DNA from: Syntrophales bacterium | GTDB lineage: Bacteria; Desulfobacterota; Syntrophia; Syntrophales; PHBD01 | Direction of reading: 5' to 3' | NCBI GenBank assembly: GCA_963668175.1 | Contig: OY764159.1 | Coordinates: 2,720,001-2,784,000, forward strand | Length of the DNA stretch: 64,000 bases | Shown here: in pieces, positions 35,347 through 59,302 of the stretch | Layout of the letters: each line of letters opens with the position of its first letter | How positions within the stretch are numbered: position 1 is the first letter of the stretch | The notes under the pieces: generated by a model | The model's database searches: none | Seen by the model: only the letters and a program-made list of their open reading frames with translations | What the model was told of the DNA's origin: nothing | Made by a program: the position numbers and the translations under genes

Positions 35347-35349
35347 GCG

Positions 35350-39995: not shown

Positions 39996-40579
39996 TTAGG
40001 CCTTATTTCAACAACTGGTACACGGGGACATACTTTGGTCAACAGACATATAGTTGGGATTGTAGCGGCTTTGGTGGCGATTTTAACGTCTATACAAATT
40101 TGACGCATGCCTGCCCAAGTAGCGGAAGTATCGCCATCGATTCATTGGAGGTATATGTCCTTGCGCCACTTATGATGTCAGTTAAGGTCGCCATATATAC
40201 CGTGGATGGCTCACTGATCGCTGAAAGCACAAGTGCAAAAACTCCTGGTACGTCAATGGCCTGGCTTGCGTGGAGTTCGTCTGAACTGACATGGCATAAC
40301 GGCTATAATTATCTAACGGGCGGAACATATTACAGACTGGCCGTTTTTGTGATGCCTGGGGAAACTTATGTAAGATTTGGAGTGAATACCTGCACGACAG
40401 GGGACATCGCGGGATTAAGCAGTCAGTCCTACTCGTCTATGCCCGATCCGATCCCCGGAGGATTGTCCAATACCAATGCGGGTCTAATGATCCGATGCCG
40501 GGTGTCAGCTGGAGGCGGAGGATTTATAGCAAAGGCGAGGCGTTCAATAAGCCAGAGGGTCGGCGTAAGAGGAGGGTGA
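39992..40579 (+). CDS. Hypothetical beta-sandwich phage protein
   Basis: ATGA coupling; lower GC. Confidence 0.65.
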   Translation: MIRPYFNNWYTGTYFGQQTYSWDCSGFGGDFNVYTNLTHACPSSGSIAIDSLEVYVLAPLMMSVKVAIYTVDGSLIAESTSAKTPGTSMAWLAWSSSELTWHNGYNYLTGGTYYRLAVFVMPGETYVRFGVNTCTTGDIAGLSSQSYSSMPDPIPGGLSNTNAGLMIRCRVSAGGGGFIAKARRSISQRVGVRGG

Positions 40580-40580
40580 A

Positions 40581-41660
40581 ATGTCCAGTTTTCAGGGATT
40601 CTTAAAACAATCAACGGCGAAAAATGTCACCATCTTGATGATAGATTCGTCGGACCATATCACCGGCAAGACCGGCCTGACGCTGACGACTTACCTGTCG
40701 AAGGATTGCAACACCCCTGCCACCATTACGCCGACGGTGACGGAACTTGATGCCATGAACATGAAGGGGGTTTATAAGCTGGCCCTGACGGCCGCCCACA
40801 CGGATACATTAGGAGAATTCAAGCTCATGGTTTCGGCTACGGGAGCGGACCCTGTCGATTATAAATGGCAGGTCTGCTCGTACCTTCCCGGCGAAGCAGC
40901 AACCCTGCAATCGGACCAGGCTGTCAATGTGACGAAGATCGCGGGCGCGACGGTTGATGCTAACACAGCTCAGCTCGGTGTGAACGTCGTGAACTGGAAA
41001 GGTTCGGCGGCTCAGAACATGACAGGGGATGCCTATGCAAGGCTCGGCGCACCGGCGGGGGCGTCCCTCTCTGCCGATATTGCCGCCGTCAATGCAAAGA
41101 CAACGAACCTGCCGGCCTCGCCGGCGGCCGTCGGGTCCGCGATGACTCTGCAAGCCTCCGCAGTTCAGGCCGTCTGGGATGCTTTGACAAGTGCCTTCAC
41201 AACCAGTGGAAGTATAGGCAAACGGCTGTCCGACAATGTCGATGCCCAGATATCGACGAGATCCACCTTCGCCGGCGGCGCCGTATCGAGTGTCACGGGC
41301 AACGTCGGCGGGTCCGTGAACTCCGTTAATAGCCCTGTGACGGTAGGAACAAACAATGACAAGCTGAATTACGGCTTGTCTTCCGCAGCTGTCCAGGCAG
41401 TCTGGGACGCCCTTGCATCGGCCCTGACGACGGCAGGGAGCATCGGCAAGCGCATCGCCGATTACCTGACTGGCGACGCCTATGCGCGCCTCGGTGCGCC
41501 GTCGGGCGCATCCGTAGCGGCCGATATCGCGGCCGTCAAGACCCAGACGGACAAGATGACGTTCGACGCCTCCAACAGGATTGCTTCCAACACCAAGGCC
41601 GTCAACGACGCGACGCTCGCCGGAGCCGGCACTTCCGGGAGCCCCTGGGGGCCCGCATGA
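40581..41660 (+). CDS. Fibre-like virion protein with internal repeats
   Basis: TGDAYARLGAPxGASxxADIAAV twice and AVQAVWDAL...GSIGKR twice. Confidence 0.7.
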   Translation: MSSFQGFLKQSTAKNVTILMIDSSDHITGKTGLTLTTYLSKDCNTPATITPTVTELDAMNMKGVYKLALTAAHTDTLGEFKLMVSATGADPVDYKWQVCSYLPGEAATLQSDQAVNVTKIAGATVDANTAQLGVNVVNWKGSAAQNMTGDAYARLGAPAGASLSADIAAVNAKTTNLPASPAAVGSAMTLQASAVQAVWDALTSAFTTSGSIGKRLSDNVDAQISTRSTFAGGAVSSVTGNVGGSVNSVNSPVTVGTNNDKLNYGLSSAAVQAVWDALASALTTAGSIGKRIADYLTGDAYARLGAPSGASVAADIAAVKTQTDKMTFDASNRIASNTKAVNDATLAGAGTSGSPWGPA

Positions 41661-41833
41661 GTATAGGCAATTCCTGGGCGGCGAACAGCTGGACGTCGGC
41701 CGCGTGGGCGGCAAACAGCTGGCAAAACTGGACCGTTGAAGCGTCGACCGCCGGCATGTACCTCATCATCGACGCGGACGGAAACGTCGAAGTCAAATAC
41801 TGCACGAAGGTGAAGCAACTCGGGACGGCATAG
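41657..41833 (+). CDS. Small Trp-rich phage protein (not in the ORF track)
   Basis: ATGA coupling; MSIGNSWAANSWTSAAWAANSWQNW... Confidence 0.55.
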   Translation: MSIGNSWAANSWTSAAWAANSWQNWTVEASTAGMYLIIDADGNVEVKYCTKVKQLGTA

Positions 41834-41842
41834 GAGGATGAC

Positions 41843-42085
41843 ATGCTCTGGGTAACGATATCGAAGAAATGGCACCAACCGACGATCTACACGAATCTCA
41901 CGCGGGACGACGGGATCGAGCTGTCCTTGCCCGTGGCGGACTTTGTCGAGGCCGTGCGGCGGGAGATCGGCTCGGTGACCTTCACCATGACGGAGGCCCA
42001 GTTCAAAGCAAAGATCGAGGCGGCGCGGGACATCGTGATCGAGGGCATCAAGGAGGAGTCGGTCAAGTGCGTAGGGGTGAATTGA
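41843..42085 (+). CDS. Hypothetical phage protein
   Basis: AGGAGG RBS; coupled to the next gene. Confidence 0.65.
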   Translation: MLWVTISKKWHQPTIYTNLTRDDGIELSLPVADFVEAVRREIGSVTFTMTEAQFKAKIEAARDIVIEGIKEESVKCVGVN

Positions 42086-42513
42086 TGGACGCCCATACGA
42101 TTCCCTTCGTTCCGGACCACATCGGCGAACTCAATCTGTCGCCGGATTTTCCGTTCGAGAGCCGGAACCTGGATTTCTTCGTCAAGGCGGGACCGGCCGT
42201 AACACTCGTCGTGGACGGCCGTAAGATCGGCTGCGGCGGCGTGGCCTTTCCCTGGGACGGCATGGGCGAAGCCTGGGCCTGTTTCGATGTGGACGTCGCC
42301 AGGTATCCGCTTTGCGCGTTCAAGCTGTCCCGCAAATTTCTGGACGATGTTTTCATGGCGTGCGGCATGAGGCGGATGCAGGCCATGGTCCGGGCGGACG
42401 CGCCCCGGCACCGCCGGTTCGTCGAGCACCTGGGATTTTCGTTCGAAGGCCTTCTGCAGGCCTTCGACAAGGACGGTAACGATTTCATGATGTATGCGAG
42501 GATCAAACCATGA
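42085..42513 (+). CDS. GNAT-fold virion protein (T7 gp13-like position)
   Basis: IGCGGV...GEAW...RRMQAMV...RFVEHLGFSFEG; precedes the internal virion genes. Confidence 0.78.
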   Translation: MDAHTIPFVPDHIGELNLSPDFPFESRNLDFFVKAGPAVTLVVDGRKIGCGGVAFPWDGMGEAWACFDVDVARYPLCAFKLSRKFLDDVFMACGMRRMQAMVRADAPRHRRFVEHLGFSFEGLLQAFDKDGNDFMMYARIKP

Positions 42514-43235
42514 GCGCAAGTTATGCACAGGCCGGGATGGCGCAGTTTTTCACCTCGGCGTCTTCGGCGAATCAGCAGTATACGGACTGGGAGTTGGGGG
42601 AACGCCAGCGGTACGCCTATCAACTCAAGTCACAGCTCTCCTGGCGCGAGGGCGAGATGGAGCAGCTTGCCATCAACGCCGAGAAATACCAGGCGAACGT
42701 CCAGGCGGTCCAGGCTGCGGCGGCGCAAAGCGATGCAGACGCACTGGCCGAGGCGGGACGGATGAAGGCACAGGCCCTCCAGGAAGACACGAACACGAAG
42801 GCGGCCCAGCTTTACGCCCATGCCGCCAAGTTCGGCGCGTTGACAAACAGCGGTTCGACGCTGGAGATCCTGAACGCCTTCGCCGCGAAGCGCGCCCAAA
42901 GCCTGGCGGAACAGAAATGGCAGACGGGCCAGCAGGTCTACGGTAAGAACATCGACGCCTACACAAAAGCGTCTCAGGCGGCGCTCACGCTTTACGACAC
43001 GAAGCTCAGGGAAGGCAACCTGCCCATGTACGCCTACCAGGGCGGGCTTTACATGATGGCCGGAGAGCAGGCGAAGAAAGACGCCACGGCCCGGATCGTC
43101 GCCGATCAGATTGCGGAGCTGGCGAAATCGGCCGAGATCTGGGGCAACGCCGCCGGAGGCGGCGGAAGCGGGGGCGGGGGCAGTATGGGCGGCATGACTT
43201 TTAATTTCGGCGGCAGCGGTGCTCCTAGCCAATAA
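42510..43235 (+). CDS. Internal virion/ejection protein (gp14-like)
   Basis: Ala/Gln-rich helical protein with Gly-rich tail; synteny. Confidence 0.6.
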   Translation: MSASYAQAGMAQFFTSASSANQQYTDWELGERQRYAYQLKSQLSWREGEMEQLAINAEKYQANVQAVQAAAAQSDADALAEAGRMKAQALQEDTNTKAAQLYAHAAKFGALTNSGSTLEILNAFAAKRAQSLAEQKWQTGQQVYGKNIDAYTKASQAALTLYDTKLREGNLPMYAYQGGLYMMAGEQAKKDATARIVADQIAELAKSAEIWGNAAGGGGSGGGGSMGGMTFNFGGSGAPSQ

Positions 43236-43256
43236 AGAACCATAAGGTGATATATC

Positions 43257-44948
43257 ATGCAGATCGTCATACCTGAAGAATTGACGGGATCGACGGAGTA
43301 TACGGCGGCTTCGCAGATGTCGAGATCCCTCTCCGCGATGGCGGACGTCTTCGCCAAGCAGTCGGCGCAGAGCGCCCAACGGAACCGGCAGCTGGACGAG
43401 ACCGTGGGGGTCATGCAGGACAGCAACAAAATCAACCAGACGTGTAACGATGCGGTCGCGCAATATAAGGGGATGACTTCCTATGAACGGGAACTGCGCG
43501 CGCAAAGCGGGTACGATCCGCTGGAAGACGACGCCAGACAGAAAATCGAGGAGGAGCGGGCAAAAATTACGAACCCGATCAGACTTGCTCTCTTCGATCG
43601 GGCGAGTCAAAGGGCCTTATATCAGGGGAGAGAAAAGGCCGATGCGATTATGACCGGCAAGATGAAGGTGGAGGCGCAGGGCGCATTAGACGCCTCTACG
43701 GAGTATCGGGTCGACTATACTCTTAACGGGTATCAAGAACCGAAAATCCCCTTATCCTCCGATCCCGATGCTCATCTTGAGGCCGTTGCCCGTGACAGAA
43801 GGCAATTCATGGCTAATCAGTATCGCGAACAACAGAGCTATCTGGCCGCAACCGTTGCTGGAGGGATGATCAACCAGGCCGAGGCCAAGGCACGCGACAC
43901 GTTGTTCCTAACGAACGTTGCATCGGGTCTTGCGGCCCAGGGGAGGATGACCGAAGCGGACGACTGGCTTGAAAGTAACCGTAACGCGATGACGCCGCAA
44001 AATTACGACCGTGCATACGCGAAACTTCGGCAGATACGCCAGGATGCGGACGTATCGAATCTCAAGGCGTATCTGAACGACCGTCATGTGATCAATCCGG
44101 TCGATCCCTATAATGCGGACGGAATGGAAACGTCGCCCCTGGAAAGAGCACAAGAAGCCGTTAAAGAGGCGACGTCGCCGGGTTTCGCCGAAGGGTACGG
44201 CCCCGATACGGTGAAGCGTGTGCAAGCAGCCGTGATCGGCCAATACGCCGAGCAGCGCGATCAATATAGGAACAAGCTCCCCGAAGTCCTGGGCGGGTTG
44301 TTGTCGGACGTCATGAACCGCAAGATCACCTCGGAGCAGCTGATGAACGATCATAACTTTCGGTACCTGAATTATCCTGAAAAGACTAATGTCCGCAATT
44401 TTACCGAGGCCGTCCAAAGGGCGGACGCTGCGGAAGCCGTCCAAGAAGGATCTCTGAATATGAAAGAGCGCCAGGAGATCTGGCGGAAGCAACAGAAGGA
44501 TGCGGTGAATAAAGCGGGGGAAATCAGGACCAACATTGCGCGCGGCCTCTATGCGAACCCGGCGGAAATGTTGCCCGAGTATTCCCGGTCGGACAATCCG
44601 CTCATTCTGAAACAATACCCCCAGGCGATGGCGGAATACAAACTTATTCAAGGCAATCGCGATTTGAAGGCGAATCTCGAACGCATCGCAACTGCGGCCG
44701 ACCAGGGCGTGCTCCATGCCGACGGGCCCGATCAAAACATGGCGGCGAGAGGATCGCTGCAGGACGATCTCATGGATATGTATAAGTCCGACAATACATT
44801 CCGCGGCGACAAAATGGAAAAGTGGGTCAAAGAGAAAATTCAGGAGATGGTGAAAAAGGCCGTGGGACAGTTGCTGGACAGGCAATTCCCCCTGATACCG
44901 GTTGTGAAAGCGTCCGAGGAACAGGGCGGCATAAAAGGCGGCGTGTAA
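43257..44948 (+). CDS. Internal virion/ejection protein (gp15-like)
   Basis: 563-aa helical protein; synteny. Confidence 0.6.
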   Translation: MQIVIPEELTGSTEYTAASQMSRSLSAMADVFAKQSAQSAQRNRQLDETVGVMQDSNKINQTCNDAVAQYKGMTSYERELRAQSGYDPLEDDARQKIEEERAKITNPIRLALFDRASQRALYQGREKADAIMTGKMKVEAQGALDASTEYRVDYTLNGYQEPKIPLSSDPDAHLEAVARDRRQFMANQYREQQSYLAATVAGGMINQAEAKARDTLFLTNVASGLAAQGRMTEADDWLESNRNAMTPQNYDRAYAKLRQIRQDADVSNLKAYLNDRHVINPVDPYNADGMETSPLERAQEAVKEATSPGFAEGYGPDTVKRVQAAVIGQYAEQRDQYRNKLPEVLGGLLSDVMNRKITSEQLMNDHNFRYLNYPEKTNVRNFTEAVQRADAAEAVQEGSLNMKERQEIWRKQQKDAVNKAGEIRTNIARGLYANPAEMLPEYSRSDNPLILKQYPQAMAEYKLIQGNRDLKANLERIATAADQGVLHADGPDQNMAARGSLQDDLMDMYKSDNTFRGDKMEKWVKEKIQEMVKKAVGQLLDRQFPLIPVVKASEEQGGIKGGV

Positions 44949-44975
44949 GCATCCTGCGGTTTTTACCGCGCCGCA

Positions 44976-46700
44976 TTGCATGGTCGTACGGATGGCGCAC
45001 AGGAACAAGGCATGGAATCGGCCAATGGCGGACAGGTGAATGAGATGGCATACGAAAGCGAAACAGGATCGATCCCGGAGAGTGCCGACGGATACATGCC
45101 GACGGGACCGCATGACAACCTGAAATATGCTCCTGCGGTTTTTTACACAGAGCCGGGAAAAGACGGTCGGAATGAACCCTCGGGGACCGATGCGTTAACC
45201 GCCTGGTTAAGAAACGCCGTATTTATCCATGGTGTCGATGACAAAATGGAAGAAGTCGCGATGCAAAACGCCGTCGCCTGGTCCAGAATGCTCAACATTC
45301 CCGCCTCCGTCGCCTATGAGTATGGACCGGATATATCGAAGATGATCCGGAGTCGGGCGGATTCAAACAACTTCGTCACGGATTCGGGTATTGCCGACCC
45401 TCGGATCGTTATGGAGGACGAAAGGAAGAAAGACGAAACCGGCCGGTTCTACGGCATGGACGGGATGAATGCGGCCGACGCGATCGCCGGCGGATCGCCT
45501 CCGCAACAACCGGAAGGCAGGAATCCGTTCCGGAATATCTATGAGGCCAAGCGAAGGTCCCGTGCGGAATTGACCTACGAAGAACTTCAGGCGCGCCTGG
45601 CCTCCGACTGGATGCGTGAGGGAATGAGCAAGGAAGCCGCGATGGCCGAGGCATACGGCCATACGTCGGCGCAGACGGAAGCCTACGACCCGTTCACATT
45701 GTTTGCCGGGGGATTGGGCGCAGGCTATCGCCTGGGAAACACGGCGGCGAGCGTGGGCGAGCGGCTGTTCAGGGCGGGCGTGCAGTCGGCCGTCATGACG
45801 GCGGCGGATATCCCGATCAGCGGGATGATCACCCCCGCCATCGAGGAGAAGTATCCCGGCCTGGCCCTTCCGGCGAATCTCATCCTCAGCGTCATATCGG
45901 GCATCTCCATCGAGAAGGGCGCGGAGAAAGGCCTGATCAAGCTACTCGAAAGCAAAGGCATTAAAAACGCCGGGGCGGCAGCCGCGGAGATAAAAGCGGG
46001 TCTTGCCGAAAAGGCCGGAAGCGGGGAATTGGGGACGATGCTCGACAAGGCCATCGAGGCACGCGGCGGTGCGGCGGATAAGATCAGACCGCCGGCAACC
46101 GATATGAATGCGGCCGGTCCCGCCGAAGGCGTCAAGGCGGAAGGGGTGACGAGCAAACCAATTAATGGTTCATTTGTCAAAACAGAGAATCTACCAAAGA
46201 ACACGATCGTTGGAGACGAAAAAGCGATTGGCGCTTTGGTTGACTTCACCCTCGAAGATAAGACGAATGTGAAACGTGCGGTGCGATTTCAAACTGTGAC
46301 GCCTGAAGAGGCGGCAAGTCTCAAAGAACGGACAAGTCTCGAATTGGAAGGATATCATCACACGATAGATAATTATGGGATCAAGCACGTGCTGGAGCAA
46401 CATGGCGATCTGATTTCAGAGGGGCATCGTGGCCAATTGCCGATTGAAAGGAGCGATATCCAGATGATTCCGGAGATTGTCAATAACTATGATTCTGTGA
46501 AGTTGATTCCAAAAGGATCGAAAGGCGATGCTAGTCCTGCATTAGACCTTATAAGATACGAAAAAAGGATTGATGGATCCGTCTATTATGTCGAGGAGAT
46601 TAGGACCGGCCGGAATGAACTGACAACAAAATCCTTATGGAAGACGCGCGCCGCGAAAGATTCCAAGCCTGATGGCTCGAACCCTTTCTCTACGCCCTAA
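44976..46700 (+). CDS. Internal virion (gp16-slot) protein with C-terminal PBECR3-like nuclease domain (NucA)
   Basis: C-terminus HTIDNYGIKHVLEQHG...GQLPIERSDIQMIPEIVNNYD...YEKRIDGSVYYVEEIRTGRNELTTKSLWK resembles PBECR3; true start may be 45012 or 45045. Confidence 0.72.
   Translation: MHGRTDGAQEQGMESANGGQVNEMAYESETGSIPESADGYMPTGPHDNLKYAPAVFYTEPGKDGRNEPSGTDALTAWLRNAVFIHGVDDKMEEVAMQNAVAWSRMLNIPASVAYEYGPDISKMIRSRADSNNFVTDSGIADPRIVMEDERKKDETGRFYGMDGMNAADAIAGGSPPQQPEGRNPFRNIYEAKRRSRAELTYEELQARLASDWMREGMSKEAAMAEAYGHTSAQTEAYDPFTLFAGGLGAGYRLGNTAASVGERLFRAGVQSAVMTAADIPISGMITPAIEEKYPGLALPANLILSVISGISIEKGAEKGLIKLLESKGIKNAGAAAAEIKAGLAEKAGSGELGTMLDKAIEARGGAADKIRPPATDMNAAGPAEGVKAEGVTSKPINGSFVKTENLPKNTIVGDEKAIGALVDFTLEDKTNVKRAVRFQTVTPEEAASLKERTSLELEGYHHTIDNYGIKHVLEQHGDLISEGHRGQLPIERSDIQMIPEIVNNYDSVKLIPKGSKGDASPALDLIRYEKRIDGSVYYVEEIRTGRNELTTKSLWKTRAAKDSKPDGSNPFSTP
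45565..46142 (+). repeat. 578-bp direct repeat, copy 1 (shared core)
   Basis: Matches 47300-47877 at offset 1735; about 11 mismatches counted by eye. Confidence 0.95.
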
Positions 46701-46728
46701 ACGACGGACGGCAATCCCCATAAGGACG
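46628..46728 (-). ncRNA. Predicted structured small RNA type A, copy 1 (antisense to the NucA 3' end)
   Basis: Begins just after a perfect promoter; closed by a UCCUUAUGG/CCAUAAGGA stem then UUUU; ~93% identical to 48901-48997. Confidence 0.62.
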
Positions 46729-46733
46729 TAATT

Positions 46734-46762
46734 ATTATATCTCCTGCCGTCAAAGATGTCAA
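46734..46762 (-). promoter_or_regulatory. Perfect consensus sigma70 promoter
   Basis: TTGACA (46762-46757)-N17-TATAAT (46739-46734). Confidence 0.85.
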
Positions 46763-46809
46763 GGAGAATGGAGCCGAAGTGAATGAAAATAAGGATTAAA
46801 TTGTGGACT

Positions 46810-46925
46810 ACCAGGCCGCTGTGACACGGCGCCGTGATTGGGGTGGCTGTAAAAGAAAAAAGCGAAGAAGGCAAAGTGTTCCGAACCGTTTACGATTGGG
46901 GCGATGTGAGTAGGAAAGTGAAGAG
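46810..46925 (+). pseudogene. Decayed remnant of the NucB 3' end
   Basis: VAVKEKSEEGKVFRTVYDWGDVSRKVK versus VVVKETKQEGKVFRTVYDWSDVSDKVK in 47062-48495. Confidence 0.8.
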
Positions 46926-47001
46926 AACCCCCCCGCTGGTTCATCTTCCAGCCAACCGGTTTATGGGGTGGGCGGGGCACCCTGGGGTTTCCCGATTGAC
47001 T
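46910..47001 (-). ncRNA. Predicted small RNA type B, orphan copy
   Basis: About 94% identical (5 differences in 84 nt) to 48494-48577; lies downstream of promoter 47008-47036. Confidence 0.55.
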
Positions 47002-47007
47002 GACGAT

Positions 47008-47036
47008 ATTTTACACGAATAATTCGGTGATGTCAA
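47008..47036 (-). promoter_or_regulatory. Near-consensus sigma70 promoter
   Basis: TTGACA (47036-47031)-N17-TAAAAT (47013-47008). Confidence 0.8.
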
Positions 47037-47061
47037 GTGATATTAGACGGTTATACGTTAT

Positions 47062-48495
47062 GTGACGACAGATGTGATCCAAGAGAATTTTACGACGGCA
47101 CTGCAAAAAATCCGGCAATCGTGCGAATCGATGCCTAATCACGGAAATAAAAGTATGACCGTGTCAGCCGTAAACCATCTGATGAGATATAATGGCGCCT
47201 CCGTCCCGGGGCTGATCGCCGGCGGATCGTACCCGCCGCAACCACTGGAAGGCAACAATCCGTACCGTAATATCTATGAGGCAAACCGAAGACCCCTGTC
47301 GGAATTGACCTACGAAGAACTTCAGGCGCGCCTGGCCTCCGACTGGATGCGTGAGGGAATGAGCAAGGAAGCCGCGATGGCCGAGGCATACGGCCATACG
47401 TCGGCGCAGACGGAAGCCTACGACCCGTTCACATTGTTTGCCGGGGGATTGGGCGCAGGCTATCGCCTGGGAAATACGGCAGCGAGCGTAGGCGAGCGGC
47501 TGTTCAGGGCGGGCGTGCAGTCGGCCGTCATGACGGCGGCGGATATCCCGATCAGCGGGATGATCACCCCCGCCATCGAGGAGAAGTATCCCGGCCTGGC
47601 CCTTCCGGCGAATCTCATCCTCAGCGTCATATCGGGCGTCTCCATCGAGAAGGGCGCGGAGAAAGGCCTGATCAAGCTACTCGAAAGCAAAGGCATTAAA
47701 AACGCCGGGGCGGCAGCCGCGGAGATAAAAGCGGGTCTTGCCGAAAAGGCCGGAAGCGGGGAATTAGGACCGACGCTCGACAAGGCCATCGAGGCACGCG
47801 GCGGTGCGGGGGAGAAGATCAAACCGCCGGCAACCGATATGAATGCGGCCGGTCCCGCCGAAGGCGTCAAGGCGGAAAGTCAACTCGGCGACAGTGCCGC
47901 ATCTGCCGTGGAGAAAGAAGAAGCCGCCGCGGCCAATGCGTGGGCTGTGGAAAGATCGCCTTCGATCTCCACCGAGAAAATCGACGGCGTCAACGTCATC
48001 CAGAGCAGCAAAGAGAGCAGAATCGGCAGGGCCTACGATATTGTCATGCAATACCTGCCCCGTCCCGTAAAAAATCTCTTCGACGCGAAAACGACGGATG
48101 TCGAAACGGCCATAGAAAAAGGCGAAAAATTCTACCGAGGGGAATTGATGAACGCTCCCGTGAAAGCACCCGCCTTCGACGGCGATAATGTGAATTTCAC
48201 GATGAGTGGATTCCTGCATGTTTCGGCTCAGGATGGACGTGTATTGAAAACGGAAGATATTACAAGACGGATTAACCTTTTGCCGAAAGCGAAGGAGGTT
48301 CTGACAAATACGCCTTGCGTTGATGAAATGAGAATATGGCCCAATGGAGATAGAACATATGGGTTGCTCGGCCGCTTTGATGACGGCTCCGTAATCAGGG
48401 TTGTCGTAAAGGAGACAAAGCAAGAGGGCAAGGTATTCCGAACAGTTTACGATTGGAGCGACGTGAGCGACAAAGTGAAGAAATCAGGAATATGA
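47062..48495 (+). CDS. N-truncated paralog with an alternative C-terminal LPD3/BECR-like nuclease domain (NucB)
   Basis: Shares a 192-codon core with 44976-46700, then VKAPAFDGDNVNFTMSGFLHV...RRINLLPKAKEVL...IRVVVKETKQEGKVFRTVYDW; start uncertain. Confidence 0.68.
   Translation: MTTDVIQENFTTALQKIRQSCESMPNHGNKSMTVSAVNHLMRYNGASVPGLIAGGSYPPQPLEGNNPYRNIYEANRRPLSELTYEELQARLASDWMREGMSKEAAMAEAYGHTSAQTEAYDPFTLFAGGLGAGYRLGNTAASVGERLFRAGVQSAVMTAADIPISGMITPAIEEKYPGLALPANLILSVISGVSIEKGAEKGLIKLLESKGIKNAGAAAAEIKAGLAEKAGSGELGPTLDKAIEARGGAGEKIKPPATDMNAAGPAEGVKAESQLGDSAASAVEKEEAAAANAWAVERSPSISTEKIDGVNVIQSSKESRIGRAYDIVMQYLPRPVKNLFDAKTTDVETAIEKGEKFYRGELMNAPVKAPAFDGDNVNFTMSGFLHVSAQDGRVLKTEDITRRINLLPKAKEVLTNTPCVDEMRIWPNGDRTYGLLGRFDDGSVIRVVVKETKQEGKVFRTVYDWSDVSDKVKKSGI
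47300..47877 (+). repeat. 578-bp direct repeat, copy 2 (shared core)
   Basis: Matches 45565-46142. Confidence 0.95.
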
Positions 48496-48575
48496 AGAGA
48501 ACCCCCCCGCTGGTTCATCTTCGAGCCAACCGGTTCATGGGGTGGGCGGGGCACCCTAGGGGATCCCGATTGACT
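48481..48575 (-). ncRNA. Predicted small RNA type B, cognate copy convergent on NucB
   Basis: Closing stem AAUCGGGA/UCCUGAUU and internal CCCCGC/GCGGGG; lies downstream of promoter 48582-48610. Confidence 0.6.
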
Positions 48576-48581
48576 GATTAT

Positions 48582-48610
48582 ATTTTACACGAATAATTCG
48601 GAGATGTCAA
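48582..48610 (-). promoter_or_regulatory. Near-consensus sigma70 promoter
   Basis: TTGACA (48610-48605)-N17-TAAAAT (48587-48582). Confidence 0.8.
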
Positions 48611-48635
48611 GTGATATTCGATGGTTATACGTTAT

Positions 48636-48970
48636 ATGACGATGGATGCGATTCAAAAGATTTTGATGATGGCACTGCAAGAAATCAAGGAAAATAAAAC
48701 ATGACCGTATCGGCCGTAAATCATCCGATGAAATGCAACGGCAACGCCGTTCCGTGGCCGATCGCCGGCGGAACGTTTCTGCCGGAGCGGGAAGGCGGGA
48801 ACAGCCCGGTACTCGACCTCATCTCGAAAGAAAGAAGGATTGATGGATCTGTCTATCGCATCGAAAAAGTGAGGGCAGGACGGAACGATCTGATAAAAAA
48901 TCCTTATGGAGGCCGCGCGCCGCGTAAGATTCCAAGCCTGATGGCTAGAACCCTTTCTCGACGCCCGAAG
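48636..48970 (+). pseudogene. Deleted third cassette: decayed N-terminus of the NucB-type gene fused to the decayed NucA 3' end
   Basis: MTVSAVNH...IAGG matches 47155-47230; SPVLDLISKERRIDGSVYRIEKVRAGRNDL matches NucA SPALDLIRYEKRIDGSVYYVEEIRTGRNEL, then frameshifts. Confidence 0.8.
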
Positions 48971-48997
48971 CGACGGACGGCAATCCCCATAAGGACG
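48895..48997 (-). ncRNA. Predicted structured small RNA type A, orphan copy
   Basis: Same closing stem followed by U6; 7 differences in 97 nt from copy 1. Confidence 0.6.
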
Positions 48998-49002
48998 ATC
49001 AT

Positions 49003-49031
49003 ATGGTATCGCCTGCAATAAACGGTGTCAA
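49003..49031 (-). promoter_or_regulatory. Sigma70-like promoter
   Basis: TTGACA (49031-49026)-N17-TACCAT (49008-49003). Confidence 0.7.
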
Positions 49032-49102
49032 GCCGAAGGGACCCTGCCCGCGTCGCAGGACGACGCAAAAAATAGATTAGAACGATACGAACAGGAGAGT
49101 AA

Positions 49103-51145
49103 ATGACAGTAGAGACCACAGACAATCGCATTTCCCATGTCGGCGACGGATCGACGATCCAGTTCGCCTTTCCCTTCGGCATTTTCGGCACGGACGATAT
49201 CGTCGTCTATCTGGCAACGGCGGGAGGTTCGAAGGTTCTGCAACAAAGGGGCGTCGACTACGACGTAACCCTTACGAACCCGGACGACCTGCCGTCGCCC
49301 GGCGTGATCACGTTCTGCCAGCTACCGGCGCCTGTGCCGCCGACTCCGCAACAGACCGTGAAGATCGTAAGGACGCTCCCCTACACGCAGGAGATCGAAA
49401 TCACGAACGGCGGGCCGATGCCGGCCGCATCCCTGAACGAAGCCTTCGACCGGGCCGTGATCCTCATGCAGCAGCTCCAGGACCAGCTACGCCAGGCGAC
49501 CATGTCGCTGGGCGAGATCGTGGCTTCGGACTTCTTCAAGCTCCTGGCGGTTTCCGGTAATGCAACGGCCGCAAGGGCGCTCCTTCAAGCCCAGCAACTG
49601 AACAATAACCTGACGGCCCTCTCGGGCCTAAGCGGCGCGGCGAACCTGCTTCCGTACTTCACCGGGACGGGAACGATGACGACGACTCCCCTGTCGTCCT
49701 TCGCCCGTGGCCTTCTTGACGACCAAAGCCCCGCGGCAGCCAGAACAACCCTTCAAGTCGACAATTCCGGAGGCGTGACCTGGAAGCAGCTCGCGTCCGG
49801 GACGGATTTTCAGACGACCTGCCCCACGGCCTCGACCATTACGATGAGCAGCGACCAGACGGCAAACATCAAATTCGGGACGCTCATCAAAGTCAAGATA
49901 AGCGGCGGGTATTATGTGGGCCAGTGCGTGACATGCACGGCCGTTCTCCTCACGGTGTCGGGGGTGGCCCTCAGCACGGGGAGCAACGCTCTACAGGAAC
50001 TCTACTACACGTCGTTTTCGGACATGGAGAGGGACATCCAGCAGGTCACGAAAAGATATTACGCGGCCGACGGTTCCGGGGTCGACACCGTAACGGCGAC
50101 ATTGGACCCGCCTCCTCCGGCCCTGGTGGACAAGATGCATTGCCGGATCGTGGCGGCCGGTAAGAATACGGGGGCGATGACATTCGAGCCCAACGCCCTT
50201 GGGCGGAAAGACATTGTCAAGCTGAACAATGTTCCGATGGCGGAGGGCGACATACCCGGCCAGTATTTCGTCATGGACCTGCAATACAGTTCCGCCCTGG
50301 ATAAATGGGTCATCCTGAACGCCGGCGTTCCCAATGGCGTGATCTCCCAGTCGAAACTTAAGACATCAAGTGAGACTGCCGGTACATTGTCCATCATTTC
50401 GGGCGGCACGGTTGAAAGTAGCTATACGCTGCCGGGGGGCGAGTATGGGTTCATGCCATCGTTTCGTTGTTGGACGAATGAATCCGGGAGATGGCCGGTG
50501 AATTTATATTCGGGGCTTCTTCAGGATTATGACGGCTACACTCTCGGAAATACAAACAAGAACGTGATATACATGAAATTCACCGGCGGTACGATTGCGG
50601 GAACGAGCTGGTTCCAGTGCAACCAAAGATATGTGACGTCCTCCGGCGAAGTTCCCTGGTTCTTTGCCCTTCGCGACAAAACAACAAAGTTCGTCAAGGC
50701 GGCAGTCTTTTCGCTCGATCATCCATGCTTCGGCAACGGCGGCAAGCCTGCTCTCGTTCCTCATCCCTTCCAGACGCCGAAAGACGACGAGGAAATTATC
50801 GTCGTTCACCCGACACCCGAGCAAATAGCTGCGGCGGAGGATTACTCCGTCCGGGGCGATGACGAAGCGGACTATTCTGTGTTGAGATCCCTCCTTGAAT
50901 TGTACGATATTGACGAAGACTCCAAACCGTCCTGGCCGGATGTTCCCGTCACCGTAGGCATCACAAAAGTATTGAGTCCGCAGGGGCGCATGGTCAAGGC
51001 CAATGCGGATAATTTAAAGGCGGTCCCCGAAAACACTCCTATCGAGGTTATAAAGAAGGTCATCCCGCAGACTGAAGGTTTGATCTGCAGGGCCTTCAAG
51101 GCGAAGGAAACGAAAACCGCCAAGGAGGACGCCGTCCATGGATGA
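49103..51145 (+). CDS. Tail fibre protein (T7 gp17-like N-terminal anchor)
   Basis: GDGSTIQFAFPF...IVRTLPYTQ...LNEAFDRAVILMQQL; LSGLSGAANLLPYFTG fibre motif. Confidence 0.88.
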   Translation: MTVETTDNRISHVGDGSTIQFAFPFGIFGTDDIVVYLATAGGSKVLQQRGVDYDVTLTNPDDLPSPGVITFCQLPAPVPPTPQQTVKIVRTLPYTQEIEITNGGPMPAASLNEAFDRAVILMQQLQDQLRQATMSLGEIVASDFFKLLAVSGNATAARALLQAQQLNNNLTALSGLSGAANLLPYFTGTGTMTTTPLSSFARGLLDDQSPAAARTTLQVDNSGGVTWKQLASGTDFQTTCPTASTITMSSDQTANIKFGTLIKVKISGGYYVGQCVTCTAVLLTVSGVALSTGSNALQELYYTSFSDMERDIQQVTKRYYAADGSGVDTVTATLDPPPPALVDKMHCRIVAAGKNTGAMTFEPNALGRKDIVKLNNVPMAEGDIPGQYFVMDLQYSSALDKWVILNAGVPNGVISQSKLKTSSETAGTLSIISGGTVESSYTLPGGEYGFMPSFRCWTNESGRWPVNLYSGLLQDYDGYTLGNTNKNVIYMKFTGGTIAGTSWFQCNQRYVTSSGEVPWFFALRDKTTKFVKAAVFSLDHPCFGNGGKPALVPHPFQTPKDDEEIIVVHPTPEQIAAAEDYSVRGDDEADYSVLRSLLELYDIDEDSKPSWPDVPVTVGITKVLSPQGRMVKANADNLKAVPENTPIEVIKKVIPQTEGLICRAFKAKETKTAKEDAVHG

Positions 51146-51449
51146 GATCAAGGTAACCTGGAACCTCGTGCTGTCGGGCCTGATGTTCCCCCTGCTCATT
51201 TACATGGTCAATAAGTTGGGGAAGGACGCGGCGGCCCGGAGCGCCGAGATGAAGAACCAGATCGCCGAGGTGACCGCGTGCGTCAACAAGATCAAGGTGG
51301 CCATGGCGGGCAAGCTGGACCGCGAGGAACACGACAACCGGTGCGAGGAAAGACTGAACGACCTCTGGGACCGCGTCCATTTCCATAGCCACAAGGGGCT
51401 CAAGGACGAAGAGGGAGAAGTCGTCATCACCGCAGGAGGGAGAAGATAA
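51138..51449 (+). CDS. Single-TM coiled-coil protein of the lysis cassette
   Basis: N-terminal TM; directly precedes the amidase. Confidence 0.6.
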   Translation: MDEIKVTWNLVLSGLMFPLLIYMVNKLGKDAAARSAEMKNQIAEVTACVNKIKVAMAGKLDREEHDNRCEERLNDLWDRVHFHSHKGLKDEEGEVVITAGGRR

Positions 51450-51889
51450 TGAGACCGAGGAAAAAGAAAACGGCGGAAGCCGCCGCCGAAGGCATGAGGC
51501 CCGTCAACGGGCTGGTTGTCCACTGTTCCGCAACGCCGAACGGCAAGGAATACCACGCCGCCGACATCGACCGCTGGCACAAGGCGCGGGGCTGGAACGG
51601 CATCGGCTATCATTTCGTGGTCGCCCTCGACGGCTCCGTCGAGGCGGGCCGGCCGGTGGAAGAGATCGGCGCCCACGTCGAAGGCCACAACCAGGACAGC
51701 ATAGGCATCTGCCTCATCGGGACGGACGAGTTCAATTCGCTGCAGCATGTGGCCCTGGCGCGGCTGCTGGCCGATCTCAAGAAACGGTTTCCGGCCGCCG
51801 ACATATGCGGCCACCGGGATTTCCCCGATGTCCAAAAACTGTGTCCCGGCTTCGACGTCAGGACGTGGTGCAGGGATTACGGCCTATGA
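51449..51889 (+). CDS. Endolysin, N-acetylmuramoyl-L-alanine amidase (T7 lysozyme-like)
   Basis: VVHCSAT, GWNGIGYHFVV, GAHVEGHN..SIGICLIG, GHRD...KLCPGFDV. Confidence 0.95.
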   Translation: MRPRKKKTAEAAAEGMRPVNGLVVHCSATPNGKEYHAADIDRWHKARGWNGIGYHFVVALDGSVEAGRPVEEIGAHVEGHNQDSIGICLIGTDEFNSLQHVALARLLADLKKRFPAADICGHRDFPDVQKLCPGFDVRTWCRDYGL

Positions 51890-52437
51890 TCGACCGTTAC
51901 GACGAATGCAGAGACCGCATGCGCACGGGCGACATTCTGCTCTGGCACAGCAATTCGCTCCTCGGCGCGCTGATCCGGATGAAGACGGGCGGCGACGAGA
52001 ACCACGCCTCCATGATCATCCGCCTCCAGGAGTACGAGGGCAGGGAGCAGCGGCGGTACCACACGGAGGCCATGGAAAACGGCGTCTGCCCGAACCTCCT
52101 GTCCGTCCGGGTGAAGGGCTTCGACGGCAGGGTCTGGTGGCTGCCGCTGAAAGAAGAATACGAAGGGAGGCGCGCCGAGATCGGCGCCAGGCTGACGGAG
52201 GTCTGGGGCAGGCCCTACGACTACGGCTCGCTCTTCTGGCAGATCGTCGGGAAGGTCTCCGTCGAGACGCGGCGGATGTTCTGCTCGGAGGTCATCGACT
52301 ACGCCATGGGGCACACGGGCGAAGCGGCCAACCCCCACGAGCTTTTGAGCCGGGGATACCATAAGGACCAAATCCTGATCTGGGAGAACATGGTCCCTGC
52401 AACTTACAACATTCCAAAGGGGACATCGGAGGTGTGA
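51886..52437 (+). CDS. Permuted papain-like NlpC/P60 (YiiX/YebB-like) protein
   Basis: TGDILL...NHASM...GRPYDY...FCSEVI (His precedes Cys). Confidence 0.78.
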   Translation: MIDRYDECRDRMRTGDILLWHSNSLLGALIRMKTGGDENHASMIIRLQEYEGREQRRYHTEAMENGVCPNLLSVRVKGFDGRVWWLPLKEEYEGRRAEIGARLTEVWGRPYDYGSLFWQIVGKVSVETRRMFCSEVIDYAMGHTGEAANPHELLSRGYHKDQILIWENMVPATYNIPKGTSEV

Positions 52438-52438
52438 A

Positions 52439-52852
52439 ATGAAAAAGAAGATTCTGCTGCTGGTTTCGGCGCTCCTTGTCCTTGCGGGATGCGCCGGCAT
52501 CCAGGTATCGACGACGCCGTCTGCGGACGTATCGATTGCCTACAAACACGGCAGGGCCATCGGGGCCGGTCTGGCCCTGGCGTATCCGGACCAGGTCGCG
52601 GCCGCGCTGCCCTACGTCCGGGGGCTTTACGCCGTGGCGAAGGACGGCACGATCACGGACGCCCAGGTGGCGAAGGCCCTGGCCCTGGTAGCGGAGAAGC
52701 TCGGCGGGAACGCCGCGCTCAAGGCGTCCATCGCCGTCGTGACGTCGGAAATCGGCCTTACGGTCAAAACGGGGACAGTGAACCCGAATCTCGTCGACGC
52801 CCTGCAGGGGGCCATCGACGGGATCTCCGCCTTCAAGGAGGTCAAGACATGA
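52439..52852 (+). CDS. Phage lipoprotein
   Basis: MKKKILLLVSALLVLAGC lipobox. Confidence 0.75.
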   Translation: MKKKILLLVSALLVLAGCAGIQVSTTPSADVSIAYKHGRAIGAGLALAYPDQVAAALPYVRGLYAVAKDGTITDAQVAKALALVAEKLGGNAALKASIAVVTSEIGLTVKTGTVNPNLVDALQGAIDGISAFKEVKT

Positions 52853-53025
52853 AGAACTGGAAAACGACGCTGGCGGGCTGTGTCTCCGCCGCCATCTATG
52901 CCGTCATCGCCGCCGTGCAGGCGGGAAGGATCGACCCGAAGGACCTGGCCGTCGCCGGGGGGCTTGCGGCCCTCGGCATCCTGGCGAAGGACCTGAACGT
53001 CACGGGAGGTTCCGTATCCCAGTAA
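52849..53025 (+). CDS. Small holin-like protein
   Basis: MKNWKTTLAG...GILAKD, 2 TM, AAGGAGG RBS. Confidence 0.68.
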   Translation: MKNWKTTLAGCVSAAIYAVIAAVQAGRIDPKDLAVAGGLAALGILAKDLNVTGGSVSQ

Positions 53026-53262
53026 ACCGGACACTGTAACTGCATCATCGATAGCCGCCCCTCCCGCACCGACGGGAACGGGGGCATGTCGGGGGCGTCC
53101 CGCCGGAAGCCGGAAACGGGCGGCGGAACGATACGGGGAGCTTTGCGCCCCGCCCTGGGACAAAAGAAGAAAACCTGCAACCAATGGAGCCCGCCGGGAA
53201 TCCGGCCTTAACCCACCAAACCGTTCGCTCCGATGGAGACGATAGAGTCAAGGGAGGATGTC

Positions 53263-53757
53263 ATGAAGAAGACGGCAATAGGCATTGCGATACTGTTAAC
53301 CTTTATCACGGCCGGTGTGTGCATGGCGCAGGGACAAGTCACGGTCGGCGCGCCGCAGCAGATCCTTGTGGACCAGTCGAGCTGCGCGGGACACGCCGCG
53401 GACAATATCAAAAAGACGATCACGATCAGTTGGAGGGGGGATTTGGCCGACGGGACGATTCCCGCGACGCCGATCCCGAGCACGGGCGTCCTGGGCTGGT
53501 ATCTCTATACGGTCGAGACCGTTCCGGGAAGCACGGCGCCTACCAGCGGATACGGCATCACGATCAAGAACAGCCACGGCATCGACCTGATGGACGGAAA
53601 CCTGGCGAACCGCAGCGCGTCGGCGGCGCAGCTGGTGAACGCGGGGGCGGGCGCATTCGGGTATCCCCTCGTCATGGGCGACCTGACCTTCGCGATCACG
53701 GGAAACTCTGTGCAGAACAGCACGGGGACCGTCATCTTAACCTTTTTGCCCGAATGA
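53263..53757 (+). CDS. Signal-peptide-bearing beta-rich protein
   Basis: GGAGG RBS; MKKTAIGIAILLTFITAGVCMA. Confidence 0.72.
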   Translation: MKKTAIGIAILLTFITAGVCMAQGQVTVGAPQQILVDQSSCAGHAADNIKKTITISWRGDLADGTIPATPIPSTGVLGWYLYTVETVPGSTAPTSGYGITIKNSHGIDLMDGNLANRSASAAQLVNAGAGAFGYPLVMGDLTFAITGNSVQNSTGTVILTFLPE

Positions 53758-53769
53758 CGGAGGTGCGCC

Positions 53770-54861: not shown

Positions 54862-55652
54862 TGAAACGCCTTATTCCATTCATCGCCGCCCTGCTGATCC
54901 TCTGCGGATCGGCCTATGCCGAGACGCAGAAGGTCACCGGCATCGATCAGCCGCAGCAGGCCATGGGCATGCCCTGGTTCACCGGCACCCAGACGGTCGG
55001 CAAGGTCAGCGGCCAGACGGCTTCGACGGCCTCTGAATGCGGCACGTATGAATTACTCTGTGAAAATTTTGAAAACGTCGGAACGCCTACGGGATGGTTA
55101 GGGTTGGTTAATAGCTATGATTTTGTAAACACCACGGCCCCTTTGCGCGGTTCAAAGTCACTTAAATTAATATGCGGTAATTCGTGTTCTGTGCTCGGTT
55201 CTGTTCAGGCCCCGTCTTTCACGGCCCAAAATACCGTTTACGGACACTTCATGGTTCAGTTTAACGGATCCACCGTATATGGATCACCCGATATCGTAGC
55301 TGTTTACAATTCAACAACTCTCCTTGCTCATGCCTGGTTGAATTATGACAACACTATAGGGATAAGACACGGGTTGGGTACACCTGCCTATACACCGGCT
55401 ATAAATTTTGGGACAACGTATCATTTCTATTGGAAGTATTCAAAGGGGACGGGGAGCAATGGCATATTGCAGATATGGCTTGGAACGTCAAAGGATAGAG
55501 CATCGGCCACGCTGACGGCATCCTGTCCGGACGGTACAGCCACGGCGCAAGCCGATAATATTAGGCACACCTACGGAGGTGGGGACGCGACATGTTTCAC
55601 TTACATAGACCAGGATTACATTTCAGCGACAGAATTTACGACGGTGCCGTGA
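54858..55652 (+). CDS. Signal-peptide-bearing protein with a lectin/LamG-like beta domain
   Basis: MKRLIPFIAALLILCGSAYA; CENFE...GILQIW...YID. Confidence 0.65.
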   Translation: MMKRLIPFIAALLILCGSAYAETQKVTGIDQPQQAMGMPWFTGTQTVGKVSGQTASTASECGTYELLCENFENVGTPTGWLGLVNSYDFVNTTAPLRGSKSLKLICGNSCSVLGSVQAPSFTAQNTVYGHFMVQFNGSTVYGSPDIVAVYNSTTLLAHAWLNYDNTIGIRHGLGTPAYTPAINFGTTYHFYWKYSKGTGSNGILQIWLGTSKDRASATLTASCPDGTATAQADNIRHTYGGGDATCFTYIDQDYISATEFTTVP

Positions 55653-59116: not shown

Positions 59117-59302
59117 TCAGCCGACATATCCCTTGATCGCCTTGACGATCGTGTCCGTAAAAAGAAACACCAGGGCGGCGTAGAGGCCCAGGATCACGAA
59201 AAACTCGAGATCGGTGATCTTGGGGAACTGCTTCTTTATCAAATAAAGAACGATGCAGCCGACGATAAAGGCGACGGCCGGCACGACAGGCAATGCATCC
59301 AT
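59117..59302 (-). CDS. Small 2-TM membrane protein
   Basis: GGAGG RBS; two hydrophobic segments. Confidence 0.6.
   Translation of the reverse strand: MDALPVVPAVAFIVGCIVLYLIKKQFPKITDLEFFVILGLYAALVFLFTDTIVKAIKGYVG

Follow-up and report, generated by a model that had tools for sequence, protein, structure and literature searches.

How does a temperate phage keep toxic cargo harmless in a lysogen? The question is raised by polyvalent proteins, which are among the largest and least understood phage weapons, and it is met again in a 64,000-nucleotide stretch of DNA from a Syntrophales bacterium (assembly GCA_963668175.1, contig OY764159.1, positions 2,720,001 to 2,784,000 of the forward strand). 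This whole stretch is referred to here as the window, and all coordinates count from its first letter. The window carries a podovirus-like prophage with a small array of polyvalent ejected-effector cassettes, two of them decayed remnants, and with two genes termed nucA and nucB. An initial annotation of the array had proposed that backward-facing promoters drive small RNAs, of two types, each neutralizing a cognate nuclease. We find that one type, RNA-A, is by prediction a well-supported structured RNA. It lies antisense to the end of a PBECR3 domain, an RNase domain by prediction, and is conserved in six sequences, two in the window and four in other genomes, which gives a handle on the question above. 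The role that we favor, with a probability of about 0.4, is that of cis-antisense RNAs, similar to those of type I toxin-antitoxin systems, that restrain expression of the effector. The features on which the finding rests are these.

45012-46700, plus strand: NucA effector gene, 562 aa from ATG 45012, in an open reading frame (ORF) that is open from TTG 44976.
46302-46664, plus strand: PBECR3 (phage BECR-fold RNase) domain of NucA, predicted with Pfam (E 1.2e-19, aa 443-563 of the 574-aa translation).
46628-46727, minus strand: RNA-A1, predicted antisense RNA of ~100 nt, covering the last 24 NucA codons and 27 nt past the stop.
48701-49021, plus strand: decayed third cassette, with a MTVSAV start fused by a deletion and a frameshift to a remnant of the PBECR3 end.
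48897-48996, minus strand: RNA-A2, the second copy, identical to RNA-A1 at 93/100 nt.

RNA-A1 is predicted to form a long closing helix with two inner hairpins and a U-run, and its complementarity to nucA is perfect over the final 73 nt of the reading frame and over the stop region. In the closing helix the antisense of the PBECR3 'xWK' codons pairs with the antisense of the linker 'NPH' codons. On the minus strand the z-scores of the fold against shuffled sequences are -4.65 (A1) and -5.17 (A2); on the plus strand the value is -2.47. Against synonymous recodings of its own frame A1 scores z -3.05, with 0.4% of recodings as stable, while six control segments lie between -1.3 and +3.2. The seven positions at which A1 and A2 differ leave every consensus pair intact, and nine pairs of the RNA-A consensus are G-U, which could not pair on the plus strand. 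When A1 is given seven random substitutions, it matches the stability of A2 in 0.6% of 3000 trials (18% in the reverse test). The two copies agree at 93 of 100 positions within the RNA, at 50/67 in the upstream flank and at 23/35 in the promoter.

RNA-A would be a new RNA motif, absent from Rfam, and a non-coding gene that lies within a protein linker and has outlasted it. The comparison with Rfam that the initial annotation had suggested returned no family: nothing matched in the whole window at gathering score, and the one match at E≤10 in 46300-49200 was a chance snoRNA away from the elements. ARAGORN found no tRNA or tmRNA. Several other identities were considered and set aside. A diversity-generating retroelement was dropped because the A1/A2 differences are not adenine-specific, and a dispersed repeat or MITE was ruled out since neither A nor B has further copies elsewhere in the 64 kb. 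An integron attC-like site, a retron RNA, a Y-RNA and a T-arm likeness were also considered, and no supporting feature was found.

A second genome scan yielded four loci (L002-L005), from two Pseudomonadales metagenome-assembled genomes (MAGs), one proteobacterial MAG and Catenovulum sediminis, whose PBECR3 domains are 37-49% identical to that of NucA. In all four, PBECR3 is internal to an ORF of 828 to >2300 aa, beside InPase, LPD39, LPD5 and LPD1 domains, and in all four the RNA-A element lies at the junction of PBECR3 and linker, within carrier ORFs of 5-7 kb. The six minus-strand segments (A1, A2 and L002-L005) were aligned with MAFFT and not fitted to a structure; A1 and A2 are near-identical and L002 and L004 are related. 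Their consensus has 26 pairs with 87.8% of cells paired, against 78.9% in shuffles, a value reached by none of 500. Twelve pairs are changed on both sides, against 6.3 in shuffles (1/500), and the covariation score is 0.467 against 0.298 (0/500). In slid controls pairing is seen in 34-49% of cells, and 1-4 pairs change on both sides. The signal is also strand-specific: on the minus strand pairing holds in 137 of 156 cells, including 30 as G-U, and on the plus strand in 107 of 156, with no G-U.

The least biased test was an exhaustive helix scan of the whole ORF from each in-frame start and at seven lengths. On the minus strand the junction element ranks first of 78 peaks in L002, first of 44 in L003, first of 100 in L004 and sixth of 122 in L005; its plus-strand ranks are 9, 1, 3 and 84, respectively. 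A covariance model (R1) retrieved only its six training sequences and nothing further in the window, and Rfam gave no match to the element in L002-L005 at E≤1. With the same type of model, none of four PBECR3 loci outside the subfamily has RNA-A; these are a solo gene of Azospirillum, a prophage of H. cinaedi and two Burkholderia phages in which the portal is fused to PBECR3 without a gap. RNA-A is therefore a feature of one subfamily rather than of PBECR3 generally. The examination of PBECR3 homologs that the initial annotation had called for thus supports structure and covariation in 4/4 members of the subfamily, and it supports neither strong promoters there (8-9 of 12 consensus matches) nor an RNA outside the subfamily (0/4).

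Two further observations concern L002. Its second-strongest antisense long-range helix (6395-6484, -29.2 kcal/mol) is followed after ~30 nt by another linker-end motif (LGLSPGAALVN, at 6515), where the -10 is poor; elements of this kind may be present at further domain junctions. The contig also has a tRNA gene at 91-172 (Rfam RF00005, 58.8 bits), ~3 kb ahead of the polyvalent ORF; it may mark the edge of a prophage or be phage-encoded.

The predicted RNAs of both types are preceded by promoters on the minus strand, which we scored as matches to the 12 consensus positions of TTGACA and TATAAT with shuffled sequence as the control.

46762..46734, minus strand: promoter A1, TTGACA-17-TATAAT, 12/12, over the relic linker codons I-I-S-P-A-V-K-D-V-K.
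47036..47008, minus strand: promoter B1, TTGACA-17-TAAAAT, 11/12.
48610..48582, minus strand: promoter B2, TTGACA-17-TAAAAT, 11/12.
49031..49003, minus strand: promoter A2, TTGACA-17-TACCAT, 10/12, over the relic codons M-V-S-P-A-I-N-G-V-K.

These four sigma-70 promoter sequences are real and far above chance, where the initial annotation had placed them. The region 40000-56000 has 18 promoter-like sites (shuffle mean 8.2), and these four score highest among them. The whole window has 19 sites at ≥10/12, against a shuffle mean of 5.5, and seven at ≥11/12, against 0.35 (maximum 2), three of the seven being in the array. Two perfect TTGACA-17-TATAAT sequences at 59910 and 60996 on the minus strand lie upstream of ordinary minus-strand ORFs (59239-59808 and 59999-60838), so the consensus appears meaningful in this genome. 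Elsewhere in the window, a promoter-like cluster occupies both strands at 20824-21050, beside unannotated small ORFs near a gene with a GmrSD_N domain (22781-24424); it comprises overlapping sites at 21044 (plus, TTGTCA-16-TATCAT) and 21050 (minus, TTGACA-16-TATCAT) and one at 20877 (minus, 11/12).

The four promoters are not four independent events, because A1 and A2, and B1 and B2, are homologous copies, and because A and B overlie the same linker motif. Repeat family A matches 46628-46775 to 48897-49044 and family B matches 46912-47112 to 48486-48686, in agreement with the two sequence types first described. Read antisense, the V-K at the linker end (GTC AA) gives the TTGAC of the -35, and the two hydrophobic codons that precede supply the -10; of the 18 nt in the six codons between, one belongs to the -35 hexamer, which leaves a spacer of 17 nt. 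Both K and N at the last position of V-[KN] keep the AA that TTGAC needs. All four promoters thus go back to one peptide motif. In each window copy the native hexamers reach the maximum possible for their own peptide (12, 10, 11 and 11 of 12), and only 0.2-1.9% of 5000 synonymous recodings equal the native score.

Comparison with relatives shows that both element types occupy DNA that is elsewhere translated as inter-domain linker. The units had been seen as appendages after complete genes, and this does not hold: they lie in what is linker DNA in relatives, exposed here by a nonsense codon or by frameshifts.

46701-46800, plus strand: linker relic after the NucA stop, where the NucA frame reads TTDGNPHKDVIIISPAVKDVKENGAEVNENKD and then a stop.
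46914-47003, plus-strand frame: B1 linker relic, NPPAGSSSSQPVYGVGGAPWGFPID and then a stop, a frameshifted post-LPD3 linker.

The relic after NucA is homologous to translated sequence in L002-L004 and in P0076 and P0077, which are the closest relatives of the PBECR3 end (80% and 49% identity, respectively) and are known from metagenomes only. Where NucA has its stop (TAA, 46698-46700) relatives have a Glu or Lys codon; P0076 and P0077 read through the position (...FSTP-E-TTxGNP...), and the tblastn alignment of P0076 stays in frame past it to 46775. The A1 linker was thus cut from translation by a GAA-to-TAA change, and those of A2, B1 and B2 by frameshifts and stops. The A2 copy has GAA at the NucA-stop codon, but the decayed third cassette has an in-frame TAA and TAG further up, within the PBECR3 frame. 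Stop reassignment or read-through was dropped as an explanation, since relatives have E, K and S at the positions of the in-frame stops and since plus-strand folding is weaker.

One plus-strand frame of the B elements reads NPPAGSSSSQPV[HY]GVGGAP.G.PID and then a stop, and its NPPAGSSSSQPV[HY]GVGGAP part matches the linker that follows LPD3 in P0005-P0013, P0026, P0039 and P0067. In relatives that linker runs ...KKLKR..LPES......GVGKAPSD....NNI[ST]P....V[KN], and both window B copies are frameshifted off the LPD3-like domain. P0026 (74 aa) and P0039 (73 aa) are metagenome ORFs made of the last ~35 LPD3-like residues and half the linker with the frame intact. Their left edge is nearly the same as that of the B1 remnant in the window, and P0039 ends ...GVGGAPEVPID; because this arrangement occurs elsewhere, the unit of remnant plus B is conserved and not a one-off product of decay. 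The linker-end motif itself, [NS]-I-[STAP]-P-x4-V-[KN], is found in at least eight polyvalent proteins (among them P0006, P0010, P0023, P0032, P0035, P0042 and P0067) and in L002 (4532) and L004 (4553). In the prophage the linker DNA persists as four islands of conservation. The layout of a nuclease domain followed by a gap is not general, as most relatives have both domains inside giant ORFs that continue after them without a gap.

The B elements have the following parts.

46826-46929, plus strand: remnant, the last ~34 codons of an LPD3-like domain (CT-B).
46915-47001, minus strand: RNA-B1, predicted short transcript in the relic post-LPD3 linker.
46996-47036, both strands: B1 promoter block, in which the minus promoter overlaps a plus-strand TTGACT-16-AATAAT (46996-47023, 10/12) facing NucB.
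48489-48575, minus strand: RNA-B2, the second copy, identical to B1 at 80/87 nt.
48570-48610, both strands: B2 promoter block, with minus TTGACA-17-TAAAAT and plus TTGACT-16-AATAAT (48570-48597).

Identity between B1 and B2 is 80/87 in the RNA and 32/35 in the promoter block, and 69/89 and 76/106 in the flanks. None of the changes breaks a pair (the threading test gives 1.3% and 9%), and there is a weak terminator-like hairpin. The plus-strand promoter-like site of each block faces the next gene, and P0076 begins with the same residues as the MTVSAV cassettes. We consider the B block to be mainly a bidirectional promoter module that heads cassettes of the MTVSAV type.

In the mechanism that we favor, host RNA polymerase would transcribe RNA-A and a short RNA-B constitutively, both in the lysogen and on entering DNA. 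RNA-A would pair with read-through or leaky late nucA transcripts, and the duplex would lead to double-strand cleavage and decay, leaving stop-less messages whose RNase product would be discarded. The outcome would be a safeguard for a toxic RNase effector, similar to a type I toxin-antitoxin pair or to oop. Antisense cases of this kind include bsrG/SR4, the nuclease-type toxins SymE/SymR and RalR/RalA, and lambda oop RNA. The closest in shape is SR6, described in the available part of its report as a 100-nt antisense RNA over the 3' end of the toxin gene yonT in the Bacillus subtilis prophage SPbeta (PMC5848175). As with yonT/SR6, the RNA here is a convergent antisense RNA of ~100 nt, predicted to have its own constitutive promoter and to overlap the 3' end of a gene on a prophage that is predicted to be toxic, and the expected action is again duplex formation and decay of the mRNA. 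RNA-A fits a type I antitoxin, with its own promoter and its complementarity to the toxin message, in geometry only. NucA departs from the type I toxins, which are small (under about 60 aa) and hydrophobic, in being a 562-aa virion effector with an RNase domain. A further difference is that the RNA gene lies inside DNA that is coding linker in relatives and recurs within ORFs of 5-7 kb. If base pairing is the mode of action, type I-like control would be widened from small peptides to large virion effectors.

A number of results weigh against this role or limit the evidence for it. Synonymous recodings of the peptide motif already average 7.4-9.6 of 12 promoter matches, so much of the promoter likeness is due to the protein motif; the distant loci have an antisense promoter of only 8-9 of 12, and the native 9/12 in L002, L004 and L005 is not above that of synonymous recodings (p 0.125, 0.145 and 0.054). 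Helix-bounded segments of the four distant loci give minus-strand recoding z-scores of -2.97, -2.97, -2.70 and -2.17 (5 of 88 random segments score ≤-2.17, the two lowest at -2.77 and -2.70), which counts for a conserved structure, but with boundaries chosen after the folds were seen, because the element is visible only when both strands of the helix are inside the segment. Dinucleotide-shuffle z-scores of the homologous segments in the distant loci are not significant (-1.10, -1.48, -0.96 and +0.55), and a fixed-grid recoding scan has no junction signal (z -1.75 to +0.89, ranks 6 to 77). Also in favor of the structure, an end-duplex test with an automated boundary rule gives p≤0.005 at three end lengths for L002 and L003, a marginal result for L004 and a wrongly picked start at L005, and it is inflated 2-4 fold, with 9 of 92 random segments at p≤0.05. 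The covariation comes from six sequences of about four lineages, and the structure was derived from those same sequences. The shared central module of the two genes is even more alike (95.8%) than the islands of identity, which could be arms of gene conversion or recombination, and the transcription starts and 3' ends of the RNAs are predictions. RNA-B has no structure above chance (fold z against shuffles -0.40 in both copies; against synonymous recodings -0.56 and -0.35), and it overlaps only the NucB stop region, which leaves antisense control of NucB weakly grounded. What the initial annotation had ascribed to every unit, namely a self-closing segment, an adjacent nuclease-like domain and a convergent RNA tied to it, is therefore retained for type A, with its low fold scores, its PBECR3 domain and its recurrence at the PBECR3 end in four of four distant subfamily genes, and is lost for type B, where the fold is at chance level and the domain is LPD3-like.

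It is rather unlikely, in our view, that the elements are decaying linker DNA with no dedicated RNA function, the promoter likeness being a by-product of I-S-P-x4-V-K, the islands arms of homology that recombination or gene conversion keeps similar as cassettes are shuffled, and the helices tolerated accidents or elements that act at the DNA level in recombination. Much of what has been described agrees with this: the score that the peptide motif reaches by itself, the recurrence of the motif in many polyvalent proteins, the one ancestral motif beneath all four promoters, the coincidence of cassette borders with conserved motifs next to a central module that is 95.8% identical, the lack of a structure signal in RNA-B, and distant loci where the promoter is not optimized. 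Such an account covers the promoter likeness and the islands but leaves a strand-specific, covarying, top-ranked helix without explanation. Also against it, all four window promoters are at the maximum for their peptide, the structure of RNA-A exceeds that of synonymous recodings and is specific to the minus strand (30 G-U cells against 0), it covaries across distant genes, and in three of these four it ranks above every other antisense helix in the ORF. The same distant genes bear on the proposal that these are prophage 'moron' small RNAs, acting in trans on messages of the host or of competing phages, or as decoys, whose place beside effector domains reflects only where promoter-prone linker was available. 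Consensus host-type promoters inside an otherwise plus-strand late operon, a compact and stable RNA-A with a U-run at its end, and two kept copies of each RNA would suit that proposal, which we nevertheless judge quite improbable. The element keeps its place at the PBECR3 junction even in distant genomes that have different hosts, which argues for a cis-linked role. When the four RNAs were compared, by a crude method, with 66 translation-start regions in the window for duplex formation, none stood out (best z -2.7). That RNA-A is instead the message for a 28-residue arginine-rich immunity peptide is barely credible.

46679-46592 region, minus strand: 28-codon arginine-rich frame (MGIAVRRLGRRERV...), 49 nt into the A1 segment used for the comparison with the distant loci.

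Both copies of RNA-A keep this frame open, and it begins 6-7 nt downstream of where transcription is predicted to start. It has no Shine-Dalgarno sequence, the seven A1/A2 differences amount to three synonymous and four non-synonymous changes, and none of the four distant loci has a similar peptide, their longest frames being unrelated in sequence.

The explanation closest to the initial annotation is that RNA-A, and RNA-B with it, binds and neutralizes the adjacent effector domain in the style of a type III antitoxin. A lysogen, or a cell under lysogenization, would be shielded from the RNase injected by its own or a kin phage, and orphan RNA genes would be kept by toxin remnants as orphan immunity genes are in polymorphic-toxin loci. 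We regard this as improbable, although the architecture is that of a polymorphic-toxin locus, with a conserved N-terminal part, the motif PAEG[IV]KA, variable low-GC ends and remnants. As initially reported, no credible protein immunity gene was found: none of eight small ORFs in the two gaps matches Pfam at E≤1, and none of the three tested with PADLOC at E≤0.01 matches there. Islands of RNA plus promoter outlast the coding remnants, with A2 93% conserved in a frame with two stops; constitutive host-type promoters would be expressed fast from entering DNA; and RNA-A overlaps the PBECR3 coding end in six of six subfamily members, so that domain and RNA are inherited as one module. Set against these points, there are no tandem repeats of the ToxI kind, the partner domain of RNA-B is not a known nuclease and RNA-B is unstructured, PBECR3 and LPD3-like domains are mostly internal to giant proteins without such a gap, and none of four more distant PBECR3 loci has the RNA. 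Known BECR toxins are neutralized by proteins, and the term 'RNA antitoxin' occurs 0 times in the available text of bioRxiv 10.64898/2026.08.28.747851. It is doubtful that the PBECR3 subfamily travels with an overlapping antisense RNA gene whose structured product is the antidote of the domain. No more probable, if there is such an antidote, are two corollaries: that the RNA gene would be co-inherited during domain shuffling since both genes share DNA, and that I-[ST]-P-x4-V-[KN] would be, at least partly, the protein shadow of the antisense promoter. Neutralization of the protein by RNA would extend RNA antitoxins to injected phage effectors and to loci that resemble those of polymorphic toxins.

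In type III toxin-antitoxin systems (ToxIN, CptIN and TenpIN) tandem RNA repeats lie upstream of the toxin in the same orientation, and the RNA inhibits an endoribonuclease. The idea of a structured RNA partner for an endoribonuclease on mobile elements is shared with the present locus. The locus differs in having no relevant tandem repeat in 44900-49200, in RNA genes that are downstream and convergent rather than upstream and co-directional, and in a protein of the PBECR3 rather than the ToxN/AbiQ/CptN type. Polymorphic toxins have demarcating junction motifs such as VENN and PxxxxDPxGL, a role played here by PAEG[IV]KA[EK]. Phage MuF toxins have been treated as polymorphic toxin systems (PMC5576092, from the part available), and what that part describes is matched here by a conserved N-terminal delivery module, a demarcating motif and swappable C-terminal domains of foreign composition, together with truncated 'orphan' cassettes and a temperate-phage origin. 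The present N-terminal module is, however, not MuF, a cognate immunity protein gene directly downstream was not found, and one of the two variable domains is without known toxic activity.

PBECR3 and LPD3 were defined as domains of polyvalent proteins by Iyer et al. 2017 (PMC5512222), as far as the available text goes, and that text, in which 'immunity protein' occurs 0 times, has no mention of an antisense RNA, a conserved linker motif or an immunity factor. The locus shares with polyvalent proteins the domain repertoire, the neighborhood of virion genes (terminase, portal, capsid, internal-virion-like, tail-fibre and amidase genes surround it), mosaic domain shuffling and giant multidomain relatives. 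Polyvalent proteins have many domains (2-15) per polypeptide, whereas NucA and NucB have one effector domain each and are short proteins arrayed with remnants; multidomain forms occur among the relatives (L002-L005 and P0005-P0017). A limited literature search found no description of a PBECR or polyvalent gene with an antisense RNA partner.

The remaining parts of the cassettes are as follows.

45482-46142, plus strand: central module of NucA, shared with NucB (95.8% identity to 47214-47877).
46119-46142, plus strand: junction motif PAEGVKAE of NucA, at the end of the central module, after which the C-terminal domains diverge.
47155-48495, plus strand: NucB cassette gene, 446 aa, beginning MTVSAV...; its start is most likely ATG 47155.
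47214-47877, plus strand: NucB central module, shared with NucA.
47854-47877, plus strand: position of the junction motif in NucB, at the end of its central module.
47950-48492, plus strand: LPD3-like C-terminal domain of NucB.

Each cassette joins a conserved N-terminal or central module, by way of the junction motif PAEG[IV]KA, to a C-terminal domain that is swappable and low in G+C; NucA consists of an N-terminal extension, the shared central module and the PBECR3 C-terminal domain. The two central modules are 95.8% identical over 664 nt (pS about 0.06). PAEG[IV]KA[EK] is the exact point at which NucA, NucB, P0002, P0025 and P0076 diverge into unrelated C-terminal domains, and those of NucA and NucB have no mutual similarity. 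The G+C content falls from 60-66% in the central module to 43-49% in the C-terminal cassettes (46150-46700 and 47950-48500), which suggests that the latter were acquired from elsewhere. The central module also heads proteins bearing ART-PolyVal or Zeta_toxin domains. An exhaustive profile-free search with the relative P0002 found 73 proteins at E≤0.001, and the NucB C-terminal domain is mostly internal to proteins of 1000-4000 aa.

Despite its name, NucB cannot be called a nuclease, because its C-terminal domain is LPD3-like and has no match among solved structures at E≤0.001; from its sequence and a structure model we describe it as an LPD3-like domain, not an established nuclease. The model (pLDDT 95) matches viral "large polyvalent protein-associated domain 3" proteins at E 6.5e-5 to 7.8e-4, and the NucB homolog P0014 has LPD3 at 31 bits (cut-off 27). 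A fold search of the Protein Data Bank gave no match at E≤0.001 (best E 0.067), and a CT-B profile found nothing below E 0.1 among the sequences of solved structures. Resemblances to a CdiA-CT chain (probability 0.35) and to BrnT (0.44) were too faint to use. Pfam finds nothing in NucB and PBECR3 only in NucA, and PADLOC finds nothing in either. LPD domains are without known function in the available text of Iyer et al. 2017 (PMC5512222). Searches for related loci gave no match among phages and plasmids, either by tblastn with NucB or P0002 or by blastn with 46560-47110. A scan of genome contigs with the shared module gave 436 pattern matches, 0 of them confirmed, and P0010 and P0007 matched phages only through unrelated domains (PBECR1 and a lysis-like domain).

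The prophage around the array has a T7-like type of head and portal, and its virion genes are all on the plus strand.

28236-29780, plus strand: large terminase.
30077-31738, plus strand: T7-type portal (Pfam Head-tail_con).
33280-34212, plus strand: capsid protein.
41869-42513, plus strand: internal-virion-like protein.
49103-51145, plus strand: tail-fibre gene, directly downstream of the array.
51449-51889, plus strand: amidase.

Two plus-strand prophage ORFs, 34806-37958 (1050 aa) and 43257-44948 (563 aa), have no Pfam or PHROG match. The effector array is placed between the internal-virion genes and the tail-fibre gene. The G+C content of the whole window is 56%, and the prophage is bordered by bacterial genes for a PAS/GAF histidine kinase, a chemoreceptor and a GmrSD_N protein.

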